Source: Phapecoctavirus DIJ07P2
Sequence record: OZ035771.1
Direction: 5' to 3' (one strand)
DNA: 64,000 bases
A program made the translations under genes and the position numbers. Below the pieces are notes generated by a model. The model worked only from the letters and a program-made list of their open reading frames with translations. It made no database searches and was not told where the DNA came from. Shown piece after piece: positions 1,452 through 17,076 of this stretch; positions within the stretch are counted from its first letter, which is position 1, and each line of letters opens with the position of its first letter.

Positions 1452-2324
1452 ACCCATACTCGTAACGGTACCATCTGCTGATCCCGTAACTTCTTTGTTC
1501 AAAGGGACAGAAATAAAATCTGGATAAATACGATCAGCACAACATGCCAAAGCTTGTTGCTTAAGGTCGTAGTTAGGATCACTAGGTTTCATGTTAACAC
1601 CTTCTTGTAAAAAGAAAATAACTTTAGGGAATACAGGCGTTACATGATCTTTGCCTAGACCGTTACTATGCACTTTAAGATAGTTAGCTGTGATCATTCT
1701 GCCAAAAACAGAGGTATCCAGACCCATACTGATTGTAATAAAAGGAGATTGTCCATTAACACTCATTAAAGTGTTAACCTGATACAAAAGAGTTTGCATA
1801 GCGTCATATACATCTTGTTCGGTCATTTCTAGGGCTTCTTTCCTTGCATAACAACCGTAGCGACGTTTGGTTATCTCCATGTTTTTAAGGAAACTGGCTT
1901 CAACATAAGGACTAAGACCTTTATCAATGTGCGCACACGTCTGACCTCCATACTGACTGGAGGCAACAGCTTGAATGATTTGAGTTAGCACTGTAGTAGC
2001 TACTCCAATAGATTTTGGTTTTTCTATCTGTGCAGCACCGATCTTAAAACCATTCTCTAACATATCTTGATAATTAACAAGACAACAGTTTGTAAGAGGA
2101 GAGAGTAGGTAATCCAAGTCGTGAATATGTCCAAAACCTTCTGTATGCCATTCTGACAAGTTTTTTGGCAGTATCTGTGTCATTGCCATATGTTTGCTTA
2201 AAATCCCCGCCAAGAGATCTCTATGCGTGTTAACGAGGTGGGAAGGTTTGTTTGCATTCTCTCTAGTGTATGTTTCTGAAGTGCGATCTAAAAAAGAAAA
2301 AACATCTTGGTACAAATCTTTCAT
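1452..2324 (-). CDS. nrdD: Anaerobic ribonucleoside-triphosphate reductase NrdD, exon 1
   Basis: N-terminal part RENANKPSHLVNTHRDLLAGILSKH...HIHDLD...NCCLVNYQDMLENGFKIGAAQIEKPKSIGVAT typical of class III RNR; track ORF 1443-2324 terminates in intron-encoded KL-stop. Confidence 0.88.
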
Positions 2325-7218: not shown

Positions 7219-7734
7219 TTAATAAAAACTCTTGACAATCCTCATCATTTCCTTAGCTCTGCTGGCGTAAGGTTCTTTTAGATTAGGTGGCAAATGTGCA
7301 TTAATGTACCCCATTTGTTTTTCCCATGTCCACTTATCTTTAAATCTTGGCATGGTGTCTCCTGCTAAACTGTTTTCTTTTCGTGTTTGAATAATCCAAT
7401 TACATGGAAAATGCACACCACCTTTACGGAAGGGAATATAATGTCCCAATGTGAATGCCTTATTGTTCTTTAAACGTCCAGCTAAATTAAGATTAACAAT
7501 AAGACTACGAAACACGTAGTATTGATAAAGATTGTCAACAGTATATACAGAGTAGTATGCTCTAAGTGCATTATCTCTACTAAGATTACCAACATCCAAA
7601 CTGCACCAGTTTAAATTACTTGGATCGTAGTTGTGATTATCAATCCATTCTTCTCTTTCCTCAAATTCTGCATTAACAGCAGACTGCCCTGCTGTAGATA
7701 CAAAAAGAGAATTTGCATCAAAGAACATACTCAC
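7219..7734 (-). CDS. Hypothetical protein (171 aa)
   Basis: ORF in leftward operon. Confidence 0.55.
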   Translation of the reverse strand: MSMFFDANSLFVSTAGQSAVNAEFEEREEWIDNHNYDPSNLNWCSLDVGNLSRDNALRAYYSVYTVDNLYQYYVFRSLIVNLNLAGRLKNNKAFTLGHYIPFRKGGVHFPCNWIIQTRKENSLAGDTMPRFKDKWTWEKQMGYINAHLPPNLKEPYASRAKEMMRIVKSFY

Positions 7735-9452: not shown

Positions 9453-9650
9453 TTACACTTTTTCCCAAGTACCAAAAGCACAGGAAGGGTAGATTCCAAC
9501 TTGAGGGTTTCCGTTATCATCTTTGAAAGTAAAACTGTTGTTGTCTTTATCAAGAACTGTAGAATAAATCTTACCAACAGTAACGCAGTTGGAAGCTTGA
9601 CCCAGTTCAGTGAGAGTAAGACATTTCATTTTCTGTTTCTTTGTAGCCAT
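9453..9650 (-). CDS. Hypothetical protein (65 aa)
   Basis: ORF with AAGGAG RBS. Confidence 0.5.
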   Translation of the reverse strand: MATKKQKMKCLTLTELGQASNCVTVGKIYSTVLDKDNNSFTFKDDNGNPQVGIYPSCAFGTWEKV

Positions 9651-9732
9651 TTATAAAATCTCCTTAGTAAGTGAATCTTTATTCTACACAAAGAGCTTTG
9701 CACATGTCAAGTAACTCTTTGTCAGATTAGTC

Positions 9733-10002
9733 TTAATGATTGGTGATGTTGATCACAATCTTGGTTTCAACTTTAGCCCAACAGGAGTCTGCTTCATTAA
9801 AACGACTATTCACAATGTATTCTCCTGCACGAGAACCTGTTAAACACACTGCACCTGTATCTGTAGCCAAATAGTATTCTCGTTCTTGTTCATCTACTTC
9901 TGCAATGTAATAGTAGAAAACAGACATAGGTTCAATTTCAGATAAACGGTATAACTTTGGAACAGGGGATTTCTCGATAAACTCAACAGAAGTTTTACTC
10001 AT
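9733..10002 (-). CDS. Hypothetical protein (89 aa)
   Basis: ORF coupled to next gene. Confidence 0.5.
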   Translation of the reverse strand: MSKTSVEFIEKSPVPKLYRLSEIEPMSVFYYYIAEVDEQEREYYLATDTGAVCLTGSRAGEYIVNSRFNEADSCWAKVETKIVINITNH

Positions 10003-10235
10003 TTGTTTTCTCCTAGATCTAAACTAATTAAGAAGTCACGAAGGATGATCATTTGTTCTGTAGACAATGATAATACACCTTCTCCATAAATATCACCAGA
10101 CCATTCAGCAGTAAAATCTAACACACCAGTACCAGGGAACCAGTCTACTGTGATCTGATTACCATTAGAATCAGGTAGTACACCATTAACTAACATAACA
10201 CACTCTCCTATTATTGTTCTTGATCTTACGATCAT
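9999..10235 (-). CDS. Hypothetical protein (78 aa)
   Basis: ORF downstream of intergenic repeat. Confidence 0.45.
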   Translation of the reverse strand: MIVRSRTIIGECVMLVNGVLPDSNGNQITVDWFPGTGVLDFTAEWSGDIYGEGVLSLSTEQMIILRDFLISLDLGENK

Positions 10236-10307
10236 CTACCGATAAGAACAAGTACTTAAATCTCTGTTCTTCGAACATCTAACGATAGAGATTAATCTAT
10301 TACATAA

Positions 10308-10370
10308 TCTACACTCGCTATCGCTCGACCCTTCGGGGTTAGGGTAGCATATTTTTTGAAAAAAGTCAAC
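10308..10370. repeat. Intergenic repeat copy 1 (ACTCGCTATCGCTCG ... TTAGGGTAGCATATTTTTTGAAAAAAGTCAA)
   Basis: About 60 bp near-identical to 36054-36116; includes UUCG-type hairpin and, on minus strand, a TTGACT -35-like box. Confidence 0.6.
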
Positions 10371-10372
10371 AC

Positions 10373-10690
10373 TTATTTTTTGGTAAGTAGATAAATCAAT
10401 TGTTCACCTGCTTCTGGTGCATATAGTGCTTTAGTATCGAAGTCAAAGAAGTGAGTGACCCCTGTTACTTTGGATACCCGGATAGATAATCGTGCAAGCT
10501 TAAGCAGATTATCCATTTCCGCAATCTTTGCACGAAACACTGCACGTGTAGCGTCAAAAGCTGCATGTGGCATGTATTTACGATTTAGACTACTACGTTT
10601 AAATTTACGATAATCTGCAATGATCTTGTTGCGTTCTTTGTTCAAGTGCTTTACCAGTGCAGTGTATACATGTGGTTCTTTGTTAGCCAT
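10373..10690 (-). CDS. Hypothetical basic protein (105 aa)
   Basis: Start moved to internal ATG (MANKEPHVY) preceded by GAGGAG RBS. Confidence 0.5.
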   Translation of the reverse strand: MANKEPHVYTALVKHLNKERNKIIADYRKFKRSSLNRKYMPHAAFDATRAVFRAKIAEMDNLLKLARLSIRVSKVTGVTHFFDFDTKALYAPEAGEQLIYLLTKK

Positions 10691-10895
10691 TGTTAATCTC
10701 CTCTTCATATGTTGGTAGTGCATGGTATGCGATCACAGGTGCCAAGTCAAAATAAAAATGACCATTGATAACAGCTATCGTGCCATTGCGTGTTTTGTTA
10801 ACTTCACAGAATCCCTTCTTGCCGTTTGCCATGATTACAAGCCACTCTCCGATAGGAACATCCTCGGTACCAGATACTTTAATCCATCCACTCAC
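10683..10895 (-). CDS. Hypothetical protein (70 aa)
   Basis: ORF overlapping neighbours by a few nt. Confidence 0.45.
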   Translation of the reverse strand: MSGWIKVSGTEDVPIGEWLVIMANGKKGFCEVNKTRNGTIAVINGHFYFDLAPVIAYHALPTYEEEINNG

Positions 10896-11149
10896 TTTAC
10901 TTCCCCTTTGTAATCGGACACTATACCAGGTCTTACTTTTGCCTTAAGATGTTTCAACTCTACCATAGGAGTTGCCACTTGTATAGGGCTAACTTCAACC
11001 TTGTAGATAGTATATTCATAAGTCGCATATTTACCGATGGAATGCAAATACTTAATTGCGTGTTCAGGGGAATCTGCTTCAACATACCCTAAATCTTTCG
11101 TAGTACGACCTTCGGTATCGCCTTCAGTGGTTACGTGATAAAGTGTCAT
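10892..11149 (-). CDS. Hypothetical protein (85 aa)
   Basis: ORF with ATGA coupling. Confidence 0.5.
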   Translation of the reverse strand: MTLYHVTTEGDTEGRTTKDLGYVEADSPEHAIKYLHSIGKYATYEYTIYKVEVSPIQVATPMVELKHLKAKVRPGIVSDYKGEVK

Positions 11150-11469
11150 AAAACCTCCTTCTGGTTGGCTGCTTCAATCATAACGTTAAGAGTCTCCATA
11201 CCGCTTTCAACTGCTTGAGCAATCTCTTGGAACACTGTTTTCTTAAAGATGTATAAAGATCCTGCCTGTAAGCGTTGCACACAGCATAAGAGGGTTTGGT
11301 GATCCATAACAAAGTCTCCATAAGCACAATCAATTTTCCCTGTGATTGGGTTGTCTCGTGAGCGAGGATCGTATTCTAATGTGATATGCGTTACACCAGG
11401 TAAAGTAACAAACTGACAACGGATGTTGACACGTGGTGCAATTGACACGCTAAACAAACTGTTTGACAT
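11146..11469 (-). CDS. Hypothetical protein (107 aa)
   Basis: ORF with ATGA coupling. Confidence 0.5.
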   Translation of the reverse strand: MSNSLFSVSIAPRVNIRCQFVTLPGVTHITLEYDPRSRDNPITGKIDCAYGDFVMDHQTLLCCVQRLQAGSLYIFKKTVFQEIAQAVESGMETLNVMIEAANQKEVL

Positions 11470-11616
11470 TTAAACCTCCTCGTAGTAAGGCAAAGCTTTG
11501 ATCAGCTGTTCTGAAGTGCCATTCTCTGTCCATGTAACCCCGTTGTCAAGAGAAACATACCCTTTCTTATCGATAAATTTACGGAGACAACCAGTGAACT
11601 TGTTTTTGTAGATCAT
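11470..11616 (-). CDS. Hypothetical small protein (48 aa), self-derived
   Basis: MIYKNKFTGCLRKFIDKKGYVSLDNGVTWTENGTSEQLIKALPYYEEV; stop immediately precedes next start. Confidence 0.4.
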   Translation of the reverse strand: MIYKNKFTGCLRKFIDKKGYVSLDNGVTWTENGTSEQLIKALPYYEEV

Positions 11617-12047
11617 TTCTTCTTTCCTTTCTTTAATTTGTTGTGACCTTTACCCTTATAAAGCTTGTGATTACGAGCAGATGGGTTATTTTGGTTCTCC
11701 AGTCGGCTAACAGGTGTATTCCAAAGATTTCCTGCTACAAAAGATGCTGCCACAAGTTCTTCCAGGTATACGAAATCCAAAGCAGGTATCTTTGTTTCCC
11801 TCATCTTGCGTTCTACATTAGACAACACGCCTTCTTCCTTACTGTCTTCTTTTTCAATTACAGACCAACCCTCTTCCTGCCAAGCTTCCCCTCTGAACCA
11901 AGTTTCCATGTTATAACCGTGTTCGTCGAGAATAACACCATCTCGCATCTCAAACCATTCACCACCGCAAAAATAGCTGTGCTCAACACGTCTACCTTCC
12001 TTCATTGCTTCTTTAGCTTCGGTCCAAGTCAGTTTGATGTTTTGCAT
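11613..12047 (-). CDS. DUF2829-like protein (possible Tad2-type anti-Thoeris sponge) with basic tail
   Basis: WTEAKEAMKEGRRVEH...GGEW...WFRGEAW..EGWSV pattern recalled for DUF2829; first gene downstream of a leftward promoter. Confidence 0.35.
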   Translation of the reverse strand: MQNIKLTWTEAKEAMKEGRRVEHSYFCGGEWFEMRDGVILDEHGYNMETWFRGEAWQEEGWSVIEKEDSKEEGVLSNVERKMRETKIPALDFVYLEELVAASFVAGNLWNTPVSRLENQNNPSARNHKLYKGKGHNKLKKGKKK

Positions 12048-12077
12048 TTGTTTTCTCCTCTCGTTTTGTATGAGTTG

Positions 12078-12105
12078 ATCTTAACAGGACTAAAAAGCAT
12101 GTCAA
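12078..12105 (-). promoter_or_regulatory. Leftward sigma70-type promoter (-35 TTGACA, 16-nt spacer, -10 TAAGAT)
   Basis: Reverse complement of 12078-12105 reads TTGACATGCTTTTTAGTCCTGTTAAGAT; followed by GAGAGGAG RBS and the 11613-12047 ORF. Confidence 0.5.
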
Positions 12106-12108
12106 TAC

Positions 12109-12137
12109 TTGATCTGAAATTATTTTCAGGTATCATA
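12109..12137 (+). promoter_or_regulatory. Rightward sigma70-type promoter (-35 TTGATC, -10 ATCATA/TATCAT)
   Basis: Divergent from the leftward promoter; precedes first rightward gene at 12162. Confidence 0.4.
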
Positions 12138-12161
12138 TATGAATATTAACAAGAGAGGTAG

Positions 12162-12455
12162 ATGATGAACATTACTTTAGCAACTAAGAATATTTCTGAA
12201 ACAATTAACGGTTTTGGTGTCATTGTAGCCTTACACGGTAACAACGAGAAATGGTTGGCTTCTTTTGAAGAGGATCGTCAGCACAACATTATTTTAGATG
12301 CTCCTATAAAAATTATGCATATTGTTGGTGAAAGCAAAGTGCTCACTTCCTCCCGTTCAAAAGAACAAATTACAAATGAATTAGTAAAACTGCTTGACAA
12401 TGTTCTTAACATGTTTGATAATGCACCCATCGATACAAAACGTGTCTTAATGTGA
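12162..12455 (+). CDS. Hypothetical protein (97 aa)
   Basis: First ORF of rightward block. Confidence 0.5.
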   Translation: MMNITLATKNISETINGFGVIVALHGNNEKWLASFEEDRQHNIILDAPIKIMHIVGESKVLTSSRSKEQITNELVKLLDNVLNMFDNAPIDTKRVLM

Positions 12456-12467
12456 GAGGAGAACAAA

Positions 12468-12752
12468 ATGTACTATTCACAAGACGAAGCAGCAAACATT
12501 AAACTGGCAGTTGGCGATCTTATTGTGTCACCTAACTACCATTGGGATAACACAGATTTGGTTGAAGTAGTAACTCATGTTGGGTTTGAGGGCGTTGTGC
12601 TCTACACCCTGGGCGGAGGTGTTGTTGGGGAAATGGAACGTTATACAACAACGAAGAAACTGGTAAGCTCTTATCGCATGTTTTTACACCAAGGTTCGGA
12701 AGAGTATACAGCTTTCTTGTTGAAATTAGACGCAGATCGGGAGAAGGCATGA
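12468..12752 (+). CDS. Hypothetical protein (94 aa)
   Basis: ORF with GAGGAG RBS. Confidence 0.5.
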   Translation: MYYSQDEAANIKLAVGDLIVSPNYHWDNTDLVEVVTHVGFEGVVLYTLGGGVVGEMERYTTTKKLVSSYRMFLHQGSEEYTAFLLKLDADREKA

Positions 12753-13108
12753 TGAAAATTGTACACGATGAAATTCAAATAGAAGAAAGTGACCTGATGG
12801 ATTTGGATGCAGCTTTGGGGAAGGTAATCTATGCAGGAATTAAAGCCTTCCGTGAGAAGGCAAACAATAGCACGTTTGTCATGATCCCCACTAAACTGAT
12901 GCGTGTTTTGTATCCAAATAGAAGTGCGCCGTATACAGATGAAGAAGAGGAGACAGGTAGAAGGGAGTGGTTAAATATTTTAGAAAAGATGGAGAATGCT
13001 TTTATTGATAGCGGTAATCCAGAAATCGTGTATGCTGAAGATCAAAGGAAGGCACGATTAGAGGGCCGTCTTTTATTCGCTAGTTATTTTGATAATCTTT
13101 GGAGCTAA
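12749..13108 (+). CDS. Hypothetical protein (119 aa)
   Basis: ATGA-coupled ORF. Confidence 0.5.
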   Translation: MMKIVHDEIQIEESDLMDLDAALGKVIYAGIKAFREKANNSTFVMIPTKLMRVLYPNRSAPYTDEEEETGRREWLNILEKMENAFIDSGNPEIVYAEDQRKARLEGRLLFASYFDNLWS

Positions 13109-13110
13109 AT

Positions 13111-13287
13111 ATGTCTGAATTCTTCACAATGGCTTTCTTAGGGATCTATCTGATTATTAGTGCTGTTGGCTTAATCATGTCTCTAATAGAAGAAATGGGA
13201 ATTAATTGGAATTGTGCATTCGGTATAGCTCTTATGCTCACTCCGGTTTGGATCTACATCTGCAAAGCAGTTGAACTAATTGGTTAA
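13111..13287 (+). CDS. Small membrane protein (58 aa)
   Basis: Start at ATG (MSEFFT); hydrophobic stretch FLGIYLIISAVGLIMSLI. Confidence 0.45.
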   Translation: MSEFFTMAFLGIYLIISAVGLIMSLIEEMGINWNCAFGIALMLTPVWIYICKAVELIG

Positions 13288-13298
13288 TAGGGGGTAAT

Positions 13299-13550
13299 AT
13301 GATTCAGTTCCAAAAAGGTCAAAAGATGACGGTATACGACGCAAAAGATATGGAATTTGCACTTGAACTTCTCGAAGATGCAGGTTTTGTGTGGATCAAC
13401 GGCGGAGAGAAGCCTACGGCTTGGCTTCCACATGAAAAAGTAGTCAACCACACCTTTCCTGACAGTATCAACTGGCATTCTGATGGTAAGATTTGCCGTG
13501 GAAGTTACCCAACAGGTGTCGAGTGGACCATTAAATTAGGAGGGCTTTAA
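13299..13550 (+). CDS. Hypothetical protein (83 aa)
   Basis: ORF with purine-rich RBS. Confidence 0.5.
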   Translation: MIQFQKGQKMTVYDAKDMEFALELLEDAGFVWINGGEKPTAWLPHEKVVNHTFPDSINWHSDGKICRGSYPTGVEWTIKLGGL

Positions 13551-13551
13551 T

Positions 13552-13890
13552 ATGTTTAGTAAAGAGATGAGAGACGTAATTGCCACTCTGGTAGTTGATC
13601 ATGGTGTTGAAGTTGAGCGTCACGTTTGGAAAGATGAGCCTCCTTTCTTTGATTTGGCATCACGGGCTAAAAGTCACATGTATCTCCTTGAAGACGATAA
13701 GGATTTTATTCTGCGTATGCGTTATGATCGAGAGTTTAGAATTCCTCTTGACACAGATCCTGATGATGTAGTATTGTGGTTGGCAGAGCATTTCGCATTT
13801 AACGCTCTACACGGAAGAAGTTTTGGTAATGAACGTTGGGATACCATTTGTCGTAAACATAATATTGAACCAGAATACGGGAGTCTTTAA
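13552..13890 (+). CDS. Hypothetical protein (112 aa)
   Basis: ORF in operon. Confidence 0.5.
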   Translation: MFSKEMRDVIATLVVDHGVEVERHVWKDEPPFFDLASRAKSHMYLLEDDKDFILRMRYDREFRIPLDTDPDDVVLWLAEHFAFNALHGRSFGNERWDTICRKHNIEPEYGSL

Positions 13891-14141
13891 TGCTAAATAT
13901 CAAGCCTAAGATGATTACTGAAGATCAAAAAGATTACATTTATAAATGTGGTCGGGTGTGGAAAGAATACACTAAAGGTAATGAAGTTATTGTAGTTACG
14001 GAACATGCTATTTCTTTATCAGATCTTTTTGGTGATTATTTGCAAGTCATTAAAATTGGTATTGACAGAGGTTTGGTGCAGGTGTTAACATTATCCCAAG
14101 TTGAAGCAGAACACTTAGACAAAATCATTGTCGAGTTCTAA
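13890..14141 (+). CDS. Hypothetical protein (83 aa)
   Basis: ORF with TAATG coupling. Confidence 0.5.
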   Translation: MLNIKPKMITEDQKDYIYKCGRVWKEYTKGNEVIVVTEHAISLSDLFGDYLQVIKIGIDRGLVQVLTLSQVEAEHLDKIIVEF

Positions 14142-14504: not shown

Positions 14505-14861
14505 ATGAAAAAATTAATCTTAGCCACATTGCTGGCTACCGTAAGCTTCACCACTTACGCTCAAAAATTTGTAGCAGTTAAAACAGATATTGGTAAAGAT
14601 GTTGTGATCACAGGCAACAAGTTTTACTATACACCTGGGAATGGTGTTCTAGAAGAGTGCAAAGATGTTGAGGCATATACAGGAAAAGAAGATAACACGG
14701 AACGTCCTTTTTATTCGATTATAGCTACTTGCAAAAATGAAATAGTAGCTATTAAACAATACAAAGATGCACCTGGAGGAGAGTACTTATTAATCAAGAA
14801 TATTAAGAGTGAAAAAACTGCAAAGTTTACAGTAATTATTTTAAAAGGAGAAACGTTCTAA
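14505..14861 (+). CDS. Putative secreted protein (118 aa)
   Basis: Signal-peptide-like MKKLILATLLATVSFTTYAQ after AGGAGGG RBS. Confidence 0.55.
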   Translation: MKKLILATLLATVSFTTYAQKFVAVKTDIGKDVVITGNKFYYTPGNGVLEECKDVEAYTGKEDNTERPFYSIIATCKNEIVAIKQYKDAPGGEYLLIKNIKSEKTAKFTVIILKGETF

Positions 14862-16000
14862 TGAAATACACTATTTTTGGAGATGTGGCTGTTGTAAATA
14901 AGGAATATGGTGTTGAAGCTAATAAACTTCCTGCTGGAGTTTGGGTTGTCAACTGCGATCCGCACGGTAACTACTCTTTAGTGCGTGGCGAAAGTTTCTC
15001 TCTTCCGAACACTCTTTATGGGGAAACTAAAGACCGCGCCGCACATATTATTAAAACATTTGCTCGTCGTAGTAAAGAAGGTAAAAATACTGGGGTGTTA
15101 CTGACAGGGACAAAGGGCAGTGGTAAGACGATGTTAGCTAAACTGATTAGCATGTCCCTAATGTCCACAGAAGGTTTAGGTATTCCAACCATTTTGGTGA
15201 CACAGCCTTACACAGATGCTGGATTCTTAGAATTTATGAGTAAAATTACAGATCGTGCTGTTGTTTTATTTGACGAGTTTGATAAAGTGTACGCTAAGAA
15301 AGAAGATCAGGAAGCACTGTTGACCTTGTTGGATGGAACAGGAAGTGGAAATAAACTTTACATCCTCACTAAAAATAGTGGCTATATCTCGGAATATTTT
15401 GTAAACCGTCCTAGTCGTATCTACTACAGTTTCAATTACGATAAACTGTCTAGTGAAACTATGTTAGATTACTTGGATAAGAACTTGGTAAATAAAAAGC
15501 ACGTAGATAACTTCCAACGTTTATGGGATGTTAGCACAGAGTTGTCTTTCGATGTTATTCAAGGCATTGTAGAAGAATTGAATTTCTATCCAAAAATGAC
15601 TTTTAAAGAATGTCTGGAAATGATGGGTATTTCTTTAGGCAACGATGCTAAATGGAATGTGGCTTCTATCGTAGCTAATGGCAAAACACTGAAGGTGAAT
15701 TGGATCAATAACTGGCACGACTTCACCCCTACTAAGTTTTTGTCGGGTGCTTGTTCCCTGAACATCTATCTGCAAAGCTTGAAAGATGATGAAGTTGAAG
15801 CAATGGAAACCAACAGTTATGTTATCCTGGATGAAGATGGTGATCCACATATTGATCTATGTGCAACGGCGGATGGTCTAACTTGTGATCTGATTGAAGG
15901 TGGTAAGATTCTGGTTATGAGCACTACACCAGGAAACACTCTGCGAGTGGTGCTGGAGCCTGTAACACAACGTTCCACCACACTGGGTAGCGTGTTCTAA
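14861..16000 (+). CDS. AAA-family ATPase
   Basis: Walker A GTKGSGKT, Walker B VVLFDEFDK, sensor-like ILTKN. Confidence 0.7.
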   Translation: MKYTIFGDVAVVNKEYGVEANKLPAGVWVVNCDPHGNYSLVRGESFSLPNTLYGETKDRAAHIIKTFARRSKEGKNTGVLLTGTKGSGKTMLAKLISMSLMSTEGLGIPTILVTQPYTDAGFLEFMSKITDRAVVLFDEFDKVYAKKEDQEALLTLLDGTGSGNKLYILTKNSGYISEYFVNRPSRIYYSFNYDKLSSETMLDYLDKNLVNKKHVDNFQRLWDVSTELSFDVIQGIVEELNFYPKMTFKECLEMMGISLGNDAKWNVASIVANGKTLKVNWINNWHDFTPTKFLSGACSLNIYLQSLKDDEVEAMETNSYVILDEDGDPHIDLCATADGLTCDLIEGGKILVMSTTPGNTLRVVLEPVTQRSTTLGSVF

Positions 16001-16039: not shown

Positions 16040-16077
16040 ATATTGATTTCAGTTTAATAGGAAGAGAATTGTTAGAT

Positions 16078-17076
16078 ATGCCAGTAAAGAAGAGTATTGA
16101 AACATATATGGAAGAATGTAAGCCGATAGCTGAGGCTAAAGGGATTACCATTCTCGGCACGTATGGAGAAGATAAAGGTGTGCATACGAAGATGATCAAT
16201 AGTTGTGAGCATGGTCATGAATGGAATACTACAACGTTTCACAGTTTTAAAGATGGTCGAGGTTGTCCTAAGTGCGCCTACAGGGAACGTTCGAAAAAGA
16301 GAAGCAAAGCTATCACTATTCCAGACCAGCAACACATACAAGATTTTATGAAGGTAGGTAAATTTAAGGAAGGCACTATTTTCACCAATACAGGGGAACG
16401 TAAAGGGTGTGATATAGTATGGATGGTTGAATGTCCTGTTTGCTCTCATGATGAATATGTGGAAGCTGGGGTGTGTGATGGTAAATTCTATGCTACCGGA
16501 AGTCATCTTAAACGTGGGTGTCTCCCTTGCCGCTGTTCTACGAGTTACAAATACACAGAGGATCAGACCACCTATAGAACAAGAAAGGAAGTAGAAAGGA
16601 GAGGATATATATTGGTAGGATGGATCGGTAAACCTTCAACAATGGGTAAGTTTAAATATAGATGTAAGGAGCACGGGGAACAGATAGGGCGTGCAGATGG
16701 TTTGCTACATAAGGGGAGTGGGTGTCCGCAGTGCGGGGGCCAAAATCAACAACAATGTTACATTAATCATATTTATGATGAAGATGGTATTCTTTGTGCA
16801 CTGAAGTTTGGTATTGCCAATAGTAGTGATCGCCGTATCAAAGAACAGAATAGCCGCAATGTGTTTACTATGAGACAAGTTCAAGTGTGGCAGTTCCCCA
16901 CTGTGAAGCAGTGTAAAAATTCAGAAAAGTATTGCAAAAAGGTGTTAGACACAGAAGCAGTGAGCAAATATGCTATGCCAGACGGCTACACAGAAACAGT
17001 GGAGCTATCTTGTCTGGCATCAATACAAAACATTTATAAACTTTATGGTGGAATATTACAGGAGGAAACATGTTAG
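16078..17076 (+). CDS. Cys-rich protein with repeated G-x-G-C-P-x-C zinc-ribbon-like motifs; possible nuclease
   Basis: DGRGCPKCAY, KRGCLPCRC, GSGCPQCGG repeats; function not assignable by eye. Confidence 0.5.
   Translation: MPVKKSIETYMEECKPIAEAKGITILGTYGEDKGVHTKMINSCEHGHEWNTTTFHSFKDGRGCPKCAYRERSKKRSKAITIPDQQHIQDFMKVGKFKEGTIFTNTGERKGCDIVWMVECPVCSHDEYVEAGVCDGKFYATGSHLKRGCLPCRCSTSYKYTEDQTTYRTRKEVERRGYILVGWIGKPSTMGKFKYRCKEHGEQIGRADGLLHKGSGCPQCGGQNQQQCYINHIYDEDGILCALKFGIANSSDRRIKEQNSRNVFTMRQVQVWQFPTVKQCKNSEKYCKKVLDTEAVSKYAMPDGYTETVELSCLASIQNIYKLYGGILQEETC

Follow-up and report, generated by a model that had tools for sequence, protein, structure and literature searches.

The locus at positions 11613-12047 of Phapecoctavirus DIJ07P2 (OZ035771.1) raises the question of whether the protein that it encodes belongs to the Tad2 (DUF2829) family of phage sponges and, if so, whether it would bind the ligand of the canonical members. 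An earlier note had proposed, from the sequence alone, that the gene encodes a DUF2829 (Tad2-like) protein, with an implied function as a sponge for the Thoeris signal 3'cADPR. We analyzed this locus within a 64,000-nucleotide stretch of the phage DNA (hereafter, the window) through homology searches, profile comparisons and structure prediction. Our analysis identified a widespread, unannotated, minimal subfamily of the Tad2 superfamily, which in the Phapecoctavirus lineage is joined to a conserved polybasic tail. Since the residues that contact the ligand in Tad2 are replaced and the conserved, lysine-rich tail is unusual, the protein is probably a new Tad2 variant.

The ORF is encoded on the minus strand, starts with the ATG at 12047, ends with the TGA at 11613-11615, comprises 144 amino acids and has exactly the coordinates that had been given for it. 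The surrounding region (bases 10000-14000) shows 97-98% identity to E. coli myophages of the phAPEC8 group (e.g., ESCO13, Schickermooser, and phAPEC8_ev052), which belong to the genus Phapecoctavirus in the subfamily Stephanstirmvirinae, and comprises a block of small genes that are nearly all annotated as 'hypothetical protein'. The ORF is a real gene: the annotations of related phages also carry a CDS for it, the whole 144 amino acid protein is matched by phrog_22208 (PHROGs, E = 1.5e-99), and its close homologues (n = 21) are 62-99% identical to it. An ATGA stop/start overlap with the next gene, which is annotated likewise in the relatives, suggests translational coupling with the downstream 48 amino acid gene. 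On the opposite strand, a longer ORF of 168 amino acids (11643-12149, plus strand) overlaps the gene and is a mirror of its Lys/Glu-rich sense frame. The features of the locus are listed in Table 1.

Table 1. Coordinates of the features of the locus, given as positions in the window.
Feature	Position	Strand	Basis
Probable sigma-70-type promoter, extended -10 (TGn)	12078..12105	-	Promoter scan: TTGACA 12105-12100, 16-nt spacer, TAAGAT 12083-12078, upstream TG
Divergent intergenic region, 114 bp	12048..12161	.	ORFs, annotation of relatives, Pfam analysis of neighbors
Shine-Dalgarno AGGAG	12055..12059	-	Sequence; 7 nt 5' of the ATG; kept in five phages
CDS, 144 aa	11613..12047	-	Orthologous to phrog_22208 and to genes annotated as 'hypothetical protein' in the phAPEC8 group
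Predicted minimal Tad2-like (DUF2829-superfamily) domain, residues 1-65	11853..12047	-	Predicted fold and profile comparison
Lineage-specific middle region, residues 66-127	11667..11852	-	Orthologue alignment; AF2 pLDDT <60
Polybasic C-terminal tail, residues 128-144, KLYKGKGHNKLKKGKKK	11616..11666	-	Orthologue alignment; net charge +9; predicted disordered
ATGA stop/start overlap with the next gene (48 aa, 11470-11616)	11613..11616	-	Sequence and ORF list

The gene had been described as the first one downstream of a leftward promoter, and this placement proved correct. It should be noted that the promoter scan by itself was not above chance (14 sites, with 13.4 expected). In five phages, however, namely the window, phAPEC8_ev052, tuntematon, PsgM04F, and the distant phi92, the flanks diverge while the -35 hexamer and the extended -10 (TGn) hold their position, and we accept this consensus-like site as a probable promoter. 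Leftward genes begin at 12047, with the gene under study in first place, and rightward genes begin at 12162, with a DUF7325 gene in first place. In two distant 150-kb phages, a full-length homologue occupies the second or third place counted from this divergence point and faces a DUF7325 gene as in the window, and the start of the early operon is a position shared in the Stephanstirmvirinae by genes of the phi92 gp217 type and by those encoding the 144 amino acid protein. The gene is probably transcribed early. Analysis of the neighboring genes in Pfam (DUF7247, DUF7325, a phage Tudor domain, an AAA ATPase, and a CapR-homology protein; all DUFs or hypothetical) gave no functional clue.

Direct database searches did not link the protein to any known domain family. 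Neither the protein nor its 18 orthologues had a match in Pfam or NCBIfam even at E≤10, and a PDB sequence search and the orthologue profile were also empty. The same was observed for the DUF2829 model itself, as PF11195 (gathering score, 25 bits) had no match at this threshold in any of these proteins; the residue pattern on which the assignment had been based is literally present (LTWTEAKEAMKEGRRVEHSYFCGGEWFEMRDGVILDEHGYNMETWFRGEAWQEEGWSVIE). An exhaustive profile search, in turn, recovered 193 representative clusters at E≤1e-3, nearly all of which match residues 5-66 only and many of which correspond to proteins of 58-70 amino acids. The consensus of this family is MT-x-x-EA-x-x-AM-x-x-G-x-KVTH-x-YF-x-x-x-E-x-x-x-M-x-x-G-x-I-x-x-E-x-GY...FW-x-x-R...GWSI, and residues A11, G18, H23, F26, E30, E42, G44, and W61 are conserved in at least 88% of 98 diverse members. 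Residues 4-65 of the 144 amino acid protein are also matched by phrog_3474 (bare 64 amino acid proteins; PHROGs, E = 2.7e-30). The members of phrog_3474, which are bare domains of 60-65 amino acids without the C-terminal half of the 144 amino acid protein, and phi92 gp217 share this domain with 45-63% identity and are all annotated as 'hypothetical protein'. The domain is acidic, with a net charge of -7 (family mean, -4.2). A homologue search that depends on a word index recovered a single fragment when queried with the N-terminal domain by itself, and likewise a single fragment when queried with the tail. P0052, a protein of 2489 amino acids that looked like a giant repeat relative, was discarded as a eukaryote-type Tudor-repeat protein, its resemblance being at the level of the fold and not of family membership.

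Structure prediction placed this domain in the Tad2 fold. The full-length AF2 model built from the orthologue alignment was mediocre (pLDDT 62.6), with values of 73-85 in the N-terminal domain and below 60 in the C-terminal half, and modeling of residues 1-67 with the 98-sequence alignment yielded a pLDDT of 91.6 and a pTM of 0.78. The predicted topology comprises helix alpha1 (residues 8-16), beta-strands at 20-23, 32-35, and 38-41, a single-residue strand or bridge at 46, a short helix at 55-58, and a last strand at 61-64. The model thus contains the N-terminal helix on an antiparallel beta-sheet and the short helix before the last strand that characterize Tad2, and residues 1-65 are confidently predicted in this fold rather than in a different one. 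A Foldseek search with the full-length model gave chains of SPO1 Tad2 as the top PDB matches (probability 0.95, target TM 0.60, E = 0.43). In BFVD, the model of residues 1-67 retrieved its own family first and then proteins labeled as DUF2829/Tad2-like in UniProt, including one of 63 amino acids (E = 3.5e-4, 33% identity). Tad2 (SPO1 gp34.65; PF11195; PDB 8SME, 8SMF, and 8WJE) is, like the 144 amino acid protein, a small phage protein with the helix motif x-x-A-[LIM]-x-A-[LM]-K-x-G-x-[KR]-V, and SPO1 Tad2 and the N-terminal domain are also alike in their antiparallel sheet, their short helix before the last strand and their terminal [DG]-W-x-[IV]-[IV].

Profile comparisons agreed with the predicted fold. 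PF11195 matched 44 of 119 distant relatives at E≤1 (best E = 5.8e-4; all sub-threshold); the two that were scored individually against it reached 17.5-18.8 bits, and P0108 aligned to positions 1-66 of the 73-position model with 18.8 bits (cutoff 25). For comparison with genuine Tad2 proteins, we used SPO1 Tad2 and 16 homologues taken from the supplementary tables of 10.1101/2023.05.01.538930. Alignment of the 98-sequence family to 15-17 of these sequences with hhalign had a probability of 91% (P = 1.1-1.3e-6), its confident part being alpha1 and beta1 only (21 columns) and the remainder colinear but weak; with a lower posterior threshold, colinearity extended as far as the [DG]-W-x-[IV]-[IV] at the C-terminus and was interrupted by a single gap of ~24 residues. 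A bridge between both groups is provided by phrog_2709, which is matched weakly by the 144 amino acid protein (6.6e-5) and by phi92 gp217, and over its whole length by SPO1 Tad2 (9.2e-10). The family profile also retrieved SptTad2 from the PDB at E = 0.27, a colinear match that is not significant alone. Since the fold, the profiles and the bridging family agree, residues 1-65 most probably constitute a remote member of the Tad2/DUF2829 superfamily, and we consider that the homology of the N-terminal domain to Tad2 and its predicted Tad2 fold are well supported. The proposed membership in DUF2829 is therefore upheld as remote homology and fold, and not as a direct match to PF11195.

The protein departs from canonical Tad2 in the ligand-binding site and in the oligomerization element. 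Genuine Tad2 proteins have invariant G17, R22, G24-W25-N26-G27, W73, D79, D84, and W85 (SPO1 numbering), and in HgmTad2 residues W21/N22/G23 and W87/L88/S90/T92/D93 contact gcADPR, their mutation abolishing binding (10.1101/2023.11.15.567273). According to the profile alignment, both gcADPR-contact motifs (GWNG after beta1 and W-L-x-S-x-T-D before the last strand) are absent from the 144 amino acid protein; the former aligns to the H23-S-Y-F26-C stretch and the latter to W50-F-R-G-E-A. All that survives of these Tad2 residues is the helix-capping Gly, an aromatic residue where SPO1 Tad2 has W25, and the final Trp. Likewise, the Tad2 insertion between beta2 and beta3, in which alpha2 forms a V-shaped dimer interface (10.1101/2023.05.01.538930), is missing, with a ~24-residue gap in the profile alignment and a tight hairpin at residues 32-41 in the model. 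Because this dimer element is absent, the pocket-forming tetramer may not form in the case of the N-terminal domain. In HgmTad2/AcrIIA7 (PDB 8KBI) and ModTad2/MoTad2 (PDB 9EIB), GWNG and W-L-A-S-Q-T-D are preserved and long insertions form a second pocket, whereas the 144 amino acid protein has neither these motifs nor these insertions. It also differs from Tad2 in an extra C-terminal extension of 79 residues that includes the polybasic tail.

The residues invariant in the family fall within the beta1-beta2 loop, the loop that follows it and the stretch ahead of the short helix, all of which correspond by alignment to the pocket elements of Tad2; this mapping is based on alignment and secondary structure rather than on superposition, with the pocket elements taken from 10.1101/2023.05.01.538930. 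We infer that the binding site may be retained with an altered chemistry, acidic and aromatic instead of W-N-G and S-Q-T-D. Taking into account that known sponge pockets are positively charged (PMC12265669), the acidic N-terminal domain argues against an anionic nucleotide ligand, unless it is metal-bridged. The ligands known for Tad2 relatives are 3'cADPR, His-ADPR, N7-cADPR, cyclic dinucleotides, and cUMP/cCMP (10.1101/2025.08.24.671296). With our family HMM, the 15 Tad2 homologues in Table S2 of that study (14 test proteins and the MoTad2 control) all scored no higher than 14 bits, and since none of them belongs to the mini-domain subfamily, the experimental results are not transferable to it. 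Regarding other anti-defence proteins, Atd1, an anti-TIR gene reported in Phapecoctavirus, encodes a MazG-like enzyme and is a different gene, and the recently described sponges Sequestin, Lockin, and TadIV-1 have folds that differ from that of the N-terminal domain.

The C-terminal half, which the earlier note did not mention, harbors the conserved polybasic tail. It begins with a middle region that comprises an acidic linker, two low-confidence helices (residues 72-84 and 92-104) and the conserved LE-x-LVAAS and W-x-TPVSR motifs, and residues 66-144 have no relative in Pfam, PDB or PHROGs other than phrog_22208. In phi92 gp217 and in alia, the same N-terminal domain is fused to an unrelated 110 amino acid module (phrog_11295) in place of the helical region and the basic tail. 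The 17 residues at the C-terminus (KLYKGKGHNKLKKGKKK) do not vary among 19 orthologues, and the motif KG[KR]GHN[KR]L[QK]K[RG]KKK is kept in P0023, P0024, P0033, and P0039, in which the N-terminal domain is ~45% identical and the middle region is unalignable. Compared with the window, the last 17 codons have 4 synonymous and 0 non-synonymous changes in PsgM04F, and 8 and 3, respectively, in L004. The tail (KGKGHNKLKKGKKK) is under purifying selection and, since the next gene of L004 is 115 nt away, its conservation is not explained by a downstream ribosome-binding site.

Pfam analysis revealed SEC-C motifs (PF02810) at the C-terminus of three distant family members (best E = 1.9e-8), and among the 72 members with a length of 85 amino acids or more, 9 have at least five Lys/Arg in their last 12 residues. 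C-termini that are basic or carry a SEC-C motif are found repeatedly in branches of the family that are unrelated to one another. The tail of the 144 amino acid protein resembles the SEC-C/SecA C-terminal tail in being a short, basic, Gly/Lys-rich peptide after a folded domain, and differs from it in lacking the C-x-C-x(8-9)-C-[CH] zinc-binding motif; it has no cysteines and no PF02810 match. By eye, its Y-K-G-K-G-H-N-K-L-Q stretch is similar to the K-Y-K-Q-C-H-G-R-L-Q of SecA, a similarity that serves as a lead only. The recurrence of a short basic C-terminal peptide suggests a role in polyanion tethering or, alternatively, in self-association with the acidic domain.

Analysis by tblastn identified the N-terminal domain (~60 amino acids) in about 470 records of enterobacterial phages, distributed among Stephanstirmvirinae, T4-like Klebsiella phages (Jiaodavirus and others), FelixO1-like phages, one Erwinia phage, and T5-like Epseptimavirus. 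Every inspected record annotates it as 'hypothetical protein', save for one orthologue labeled as 'tRNA methyltransferase' (LR597654.1). The T5-like phage saus132 encodes a standalone homologue of 65 amino acids in its left terminal repeat together with dmp, A1, and A2; the terminal repeat of T5 is the first-step-transfer DNA, which is the first to enter the cell. In KP179, the homologue is found among small ORFs between nrdH and gene 55, and in a FelixO1-like phage it is located between the DNA polymerase and ligase genes. The first 12 kb of T5 (first-step-transfer region) had no match to the family HMM, provided that the T5 sequence was among those searched, which is unconfirmed, and the first 50 kb of SPO1 encode no member of the mini-domain family. 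A scan of 185,579 bacterial and archaeal species genomes for the full-length protein, whose search patterns were derived from the C-terminal half and thus say nothing on bare N-terminal domains in bacteria or prophages, yielded only one contig of 541 bp. As the full-length protein is nearly absent from bacterial and archaeal genomes, this would be a gene of virulent phages.

We propose a two-part protein in which a stripped-down Tad2/DUF2829 domain (residues 1-65), which retains from Tad2 the N-terminal helix and a small antiparallel beta-sheet and lacks the beta2-beta3 insertion, would be followed by the C-terminal extension. The putative pocket would be formed by the most conserved residues of the domain, namely H23, F26, and E30 in the beta1-beta2 loop, E42-x-G44-Y45 in the next loop, and the aromatic W50/F51/W52 stretch before the short helix. 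The domain would act as a small sponge-like ligand-binding module during early infection, in counter-defence or host manipulation, with a ligand that is probably not 3'cADPR held in the canonical Tad2 manner, and the polybasic tail would either anchor the protein to a polyanionic surface, be it nucleic acid, the ribosome or a membrane, or drive its self-association. Taken as a whole, this reading, an early accessory ligand-binding module that is related to sponges and has a different ligand, is the one that we tentatively favor, with a confidence slightly below even. A bolder proposal, which we regard as speculative and rather improbable, is that the mini-domain of these ~470 records constitutes a distinct sponge clade whose acidic/aromatic pocket (H23, F26, E30, E42, Y45, and W61) would capture a signal that no known phage sponge takes, with the Phapecoctavirus tail tethering the protein to nucleic acid or ribosomes. 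Candidate signals would be a nucleotide derivative, either cationic or bridged by a metal, or a different immune messenger used by Enterobacteria. If true, such a localized sponge would represent an arrangement undescribed for any sponge family.

Other readings of the same data must be weighed. The fold, the remote homology and the plausible early expression would fit a canonical Tad2, that is, a homotetrameric sponge for the Thoeris signal 3'cADPR or His-ADPR, and some divergent homologues without an exact GWNG still inhibit Thoeris (e.g., homologue 79 in Table S2 of 10.1101/2025.08.24.671296). However, the contact residues are replaced by H-x-Y-F and W-F-R-G-E-A, the alpha2 dimer insertion is deleted (~24-residue gap), the surface of the domain is acidic, and PF11195 is unmatched at any threshold by the protein or its 18 orthologues. 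The search for the defining contact residues and for the dimer element was negative, which makes a canonical anti-Thoeris function decidedly unlikely, and the role as a Thoeris 3'cADPR sponge implied by the earlier note is left unsupported by these departures and by the lack of any Table S2 homologue in the subfamily.

A serious rival, although somewhat unlikely in our judgment, is a non-sponge protein for early host takeover, in which an SH3/Tudor-like barrel would bind a host or phage macromolecule and the tail would bind DNA, RNA or the ribosome. In line with this, the family profile picks up the Tudor repeats of P0052, and the N-terminal domain has conserved aromatics and two invariant acidic residues, a combination that is typical of cages binding cationic groups. 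The strictly conserved tail, with a charge of +9 over 17 residues, and the SEC-C motifs or Lys/Arg-rich stretches at the end of other family members also fit such a role; the SEC-C motif of SecA binds SecB and ribosomes. Moreover, the activity for which AcrIIA7, a relative of Tad2, was originally isolated is the inhibition of a protein-based system (10.1101/2023.05.01.538930). On the other hand, most family members are bare domains of 60-70 amino acids without a tail, which implies that the core function needs no tail, phi92 has the same domain with an unrelated, non-basic C-terminus, and ligand sponges are the closest structural relatives by a wide margin. As for a chance resemblance or a spurious ORF, with either the antisense ORF being the real gene or the 'tRNA methyltransferase' label being correct, this can be excluded for practical purposes. 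The antisense ORF is indeed longer, and the phAPEC8_ev052 record does give its orthologue that name; yet every homology falls on the minus-strand frame, which is conserved as protein with synonymous changes, belongs to a family of 193 representative clusters, has a fold predicted with a pLDDT of 91.6 and is preceded by its own Shine-Dalgarno sequence and promoter, leaving the antisense ORF with no support. The label itself was rejected, as no methyltransferase family or domain was detected at E≤10 in Pfam or NCBIfam and the fold is Tad2-like.

The interpretation of the protein as an early, sponge-related ligand-binding module bears on a family that is among the most versatile of phage sponges, and in which each new specificity has so far revealed or confirmed a bacterial immune signal. 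The mini-domain subfamily, which goes undetected by the Pfam model, is common among therapeutic phages directed at E. coli, Klebsiella, and Salmonella. Its recurring C-termini of the basic or SEC-C type suggest a localization element, which is unstudied in anti-defence proteins. If the domain is not a sponge, the Tad2 fold would have been re-used for another early function; if it is, the identity of its ligand would indicate which signaling defence these phages meet in Enterobacteria.

The public record of phAPEC8_ev052 (LR597654.1, L001 7613-8047) labels the orthologue of the Tad2-like gene a 'tRNA methyltransferase', a label that looks spurious because no methyltransferase domain was detectable. 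On the opposite strand of the window, the Tad2-like gene is accompanied by a long antisense ORF, the Phe/Leu-rich mirror image of the Lys/Glu-rich sense frame; this ORF would be chosen over the real gene by a naive longest-ORF caller.

Within the leftward gene block, we identified a second near-consensus promoter-like site upstream of a 65-aa ORF (9453-9650), which suggests an internal promoter of this block. The rightward operon opposite the Tad2-like gene begins with genes encoding a DUF7325 protein and a Phage_tudor domain protein, and the position of the DUF7325 gene opposite the Tad2-like gene is kept in a distant 150-kb phage (L003). Farther along, the ATPase gene is followed by the gene for the CapR-homology protein in a common early rightward block.

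Coordinates of the features in the window and in related phages
Feature	Sequence	Coordinates	Strand	Description
Promoter-like site	window	9681-9710	-	near-consensus; TTGACA, 18 nt, TAGAAT; 11/12 matches
Antisense ORF	window	11643-12149	+	168 aa; spans entire Tad2-like gene
DUF7325 protein gene	window	12162-12455	+	among first two genes of rightward operon
Phage_tudor domain protein gene (PF24144)	window	12468-12752	+	among first two genes of rightward operon
AAA/STAND-like ATPase gene	window	14861-16000	+	early rightward block
CapR-homology protein gene	window	16069-17076	+	three CapR-homology domains and possible treble-clef zinc finger in one protein; early rightward block
Standalone family member	saus132 (L005)	7432-7629		65 aa; left terminal repeat, first-step-transfer DNA
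phi92 gp217 gene	phi92 (L009)	1501-2052		same N-domain as Tad2-like protein plus unrelated 110-aa module (phrog_11295)

A tblastn search revealed a 78% identical orthologue in 'Pseudomonas phage PsgM04F' (OR584014.1), in a locus with Phapecoctavirus-like synteny. The recorded host of this phage is P. coronafaciens, which is unexpected for Phapecoctavirus-like phages. The sole match in bacterial genome assemblies, a 541-bp contig of a Lysobacteraceae assembly (JAPMLR010000052.1), is 99% identical to the phage gene and probably represents phage contamination of that assembly. The standalone member in saus132, a T5-like Epseptimavirus, adjoins a T5.015-like nicking endonuclease gene; no copy was found in the first 12 kb of T5 itself, provided that T5 was among the sequences searched.

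The profile of the mini Tad2-like domain family was also matched, repeatedly and at positions 10-48, by P0052, a eukaryote-type protein of 2489 aa with about 19 Tudor repeats together with SAM, EF-hand and deaminase domains. These repeated matches show that Tudor domains and the mini Tad2-like barrel resemble each other at the sequence level.

The C-terminal ends of distant family members (P0097, P0105, P0118 and P0119; P0051, P0059, P0084 and P0106) carry SEC-C zinc motifs or Lys/Arg-rich tails, a recurrence that parallels the polybasic tail of the Tad2-like protein, KGKGHNKLKKGKKK. The C-terminal module of phi92 gp217 exists also as a separate family and, by analogy with sponge-sponge fusions (PMC12265669), may have an additional anti-defence role.
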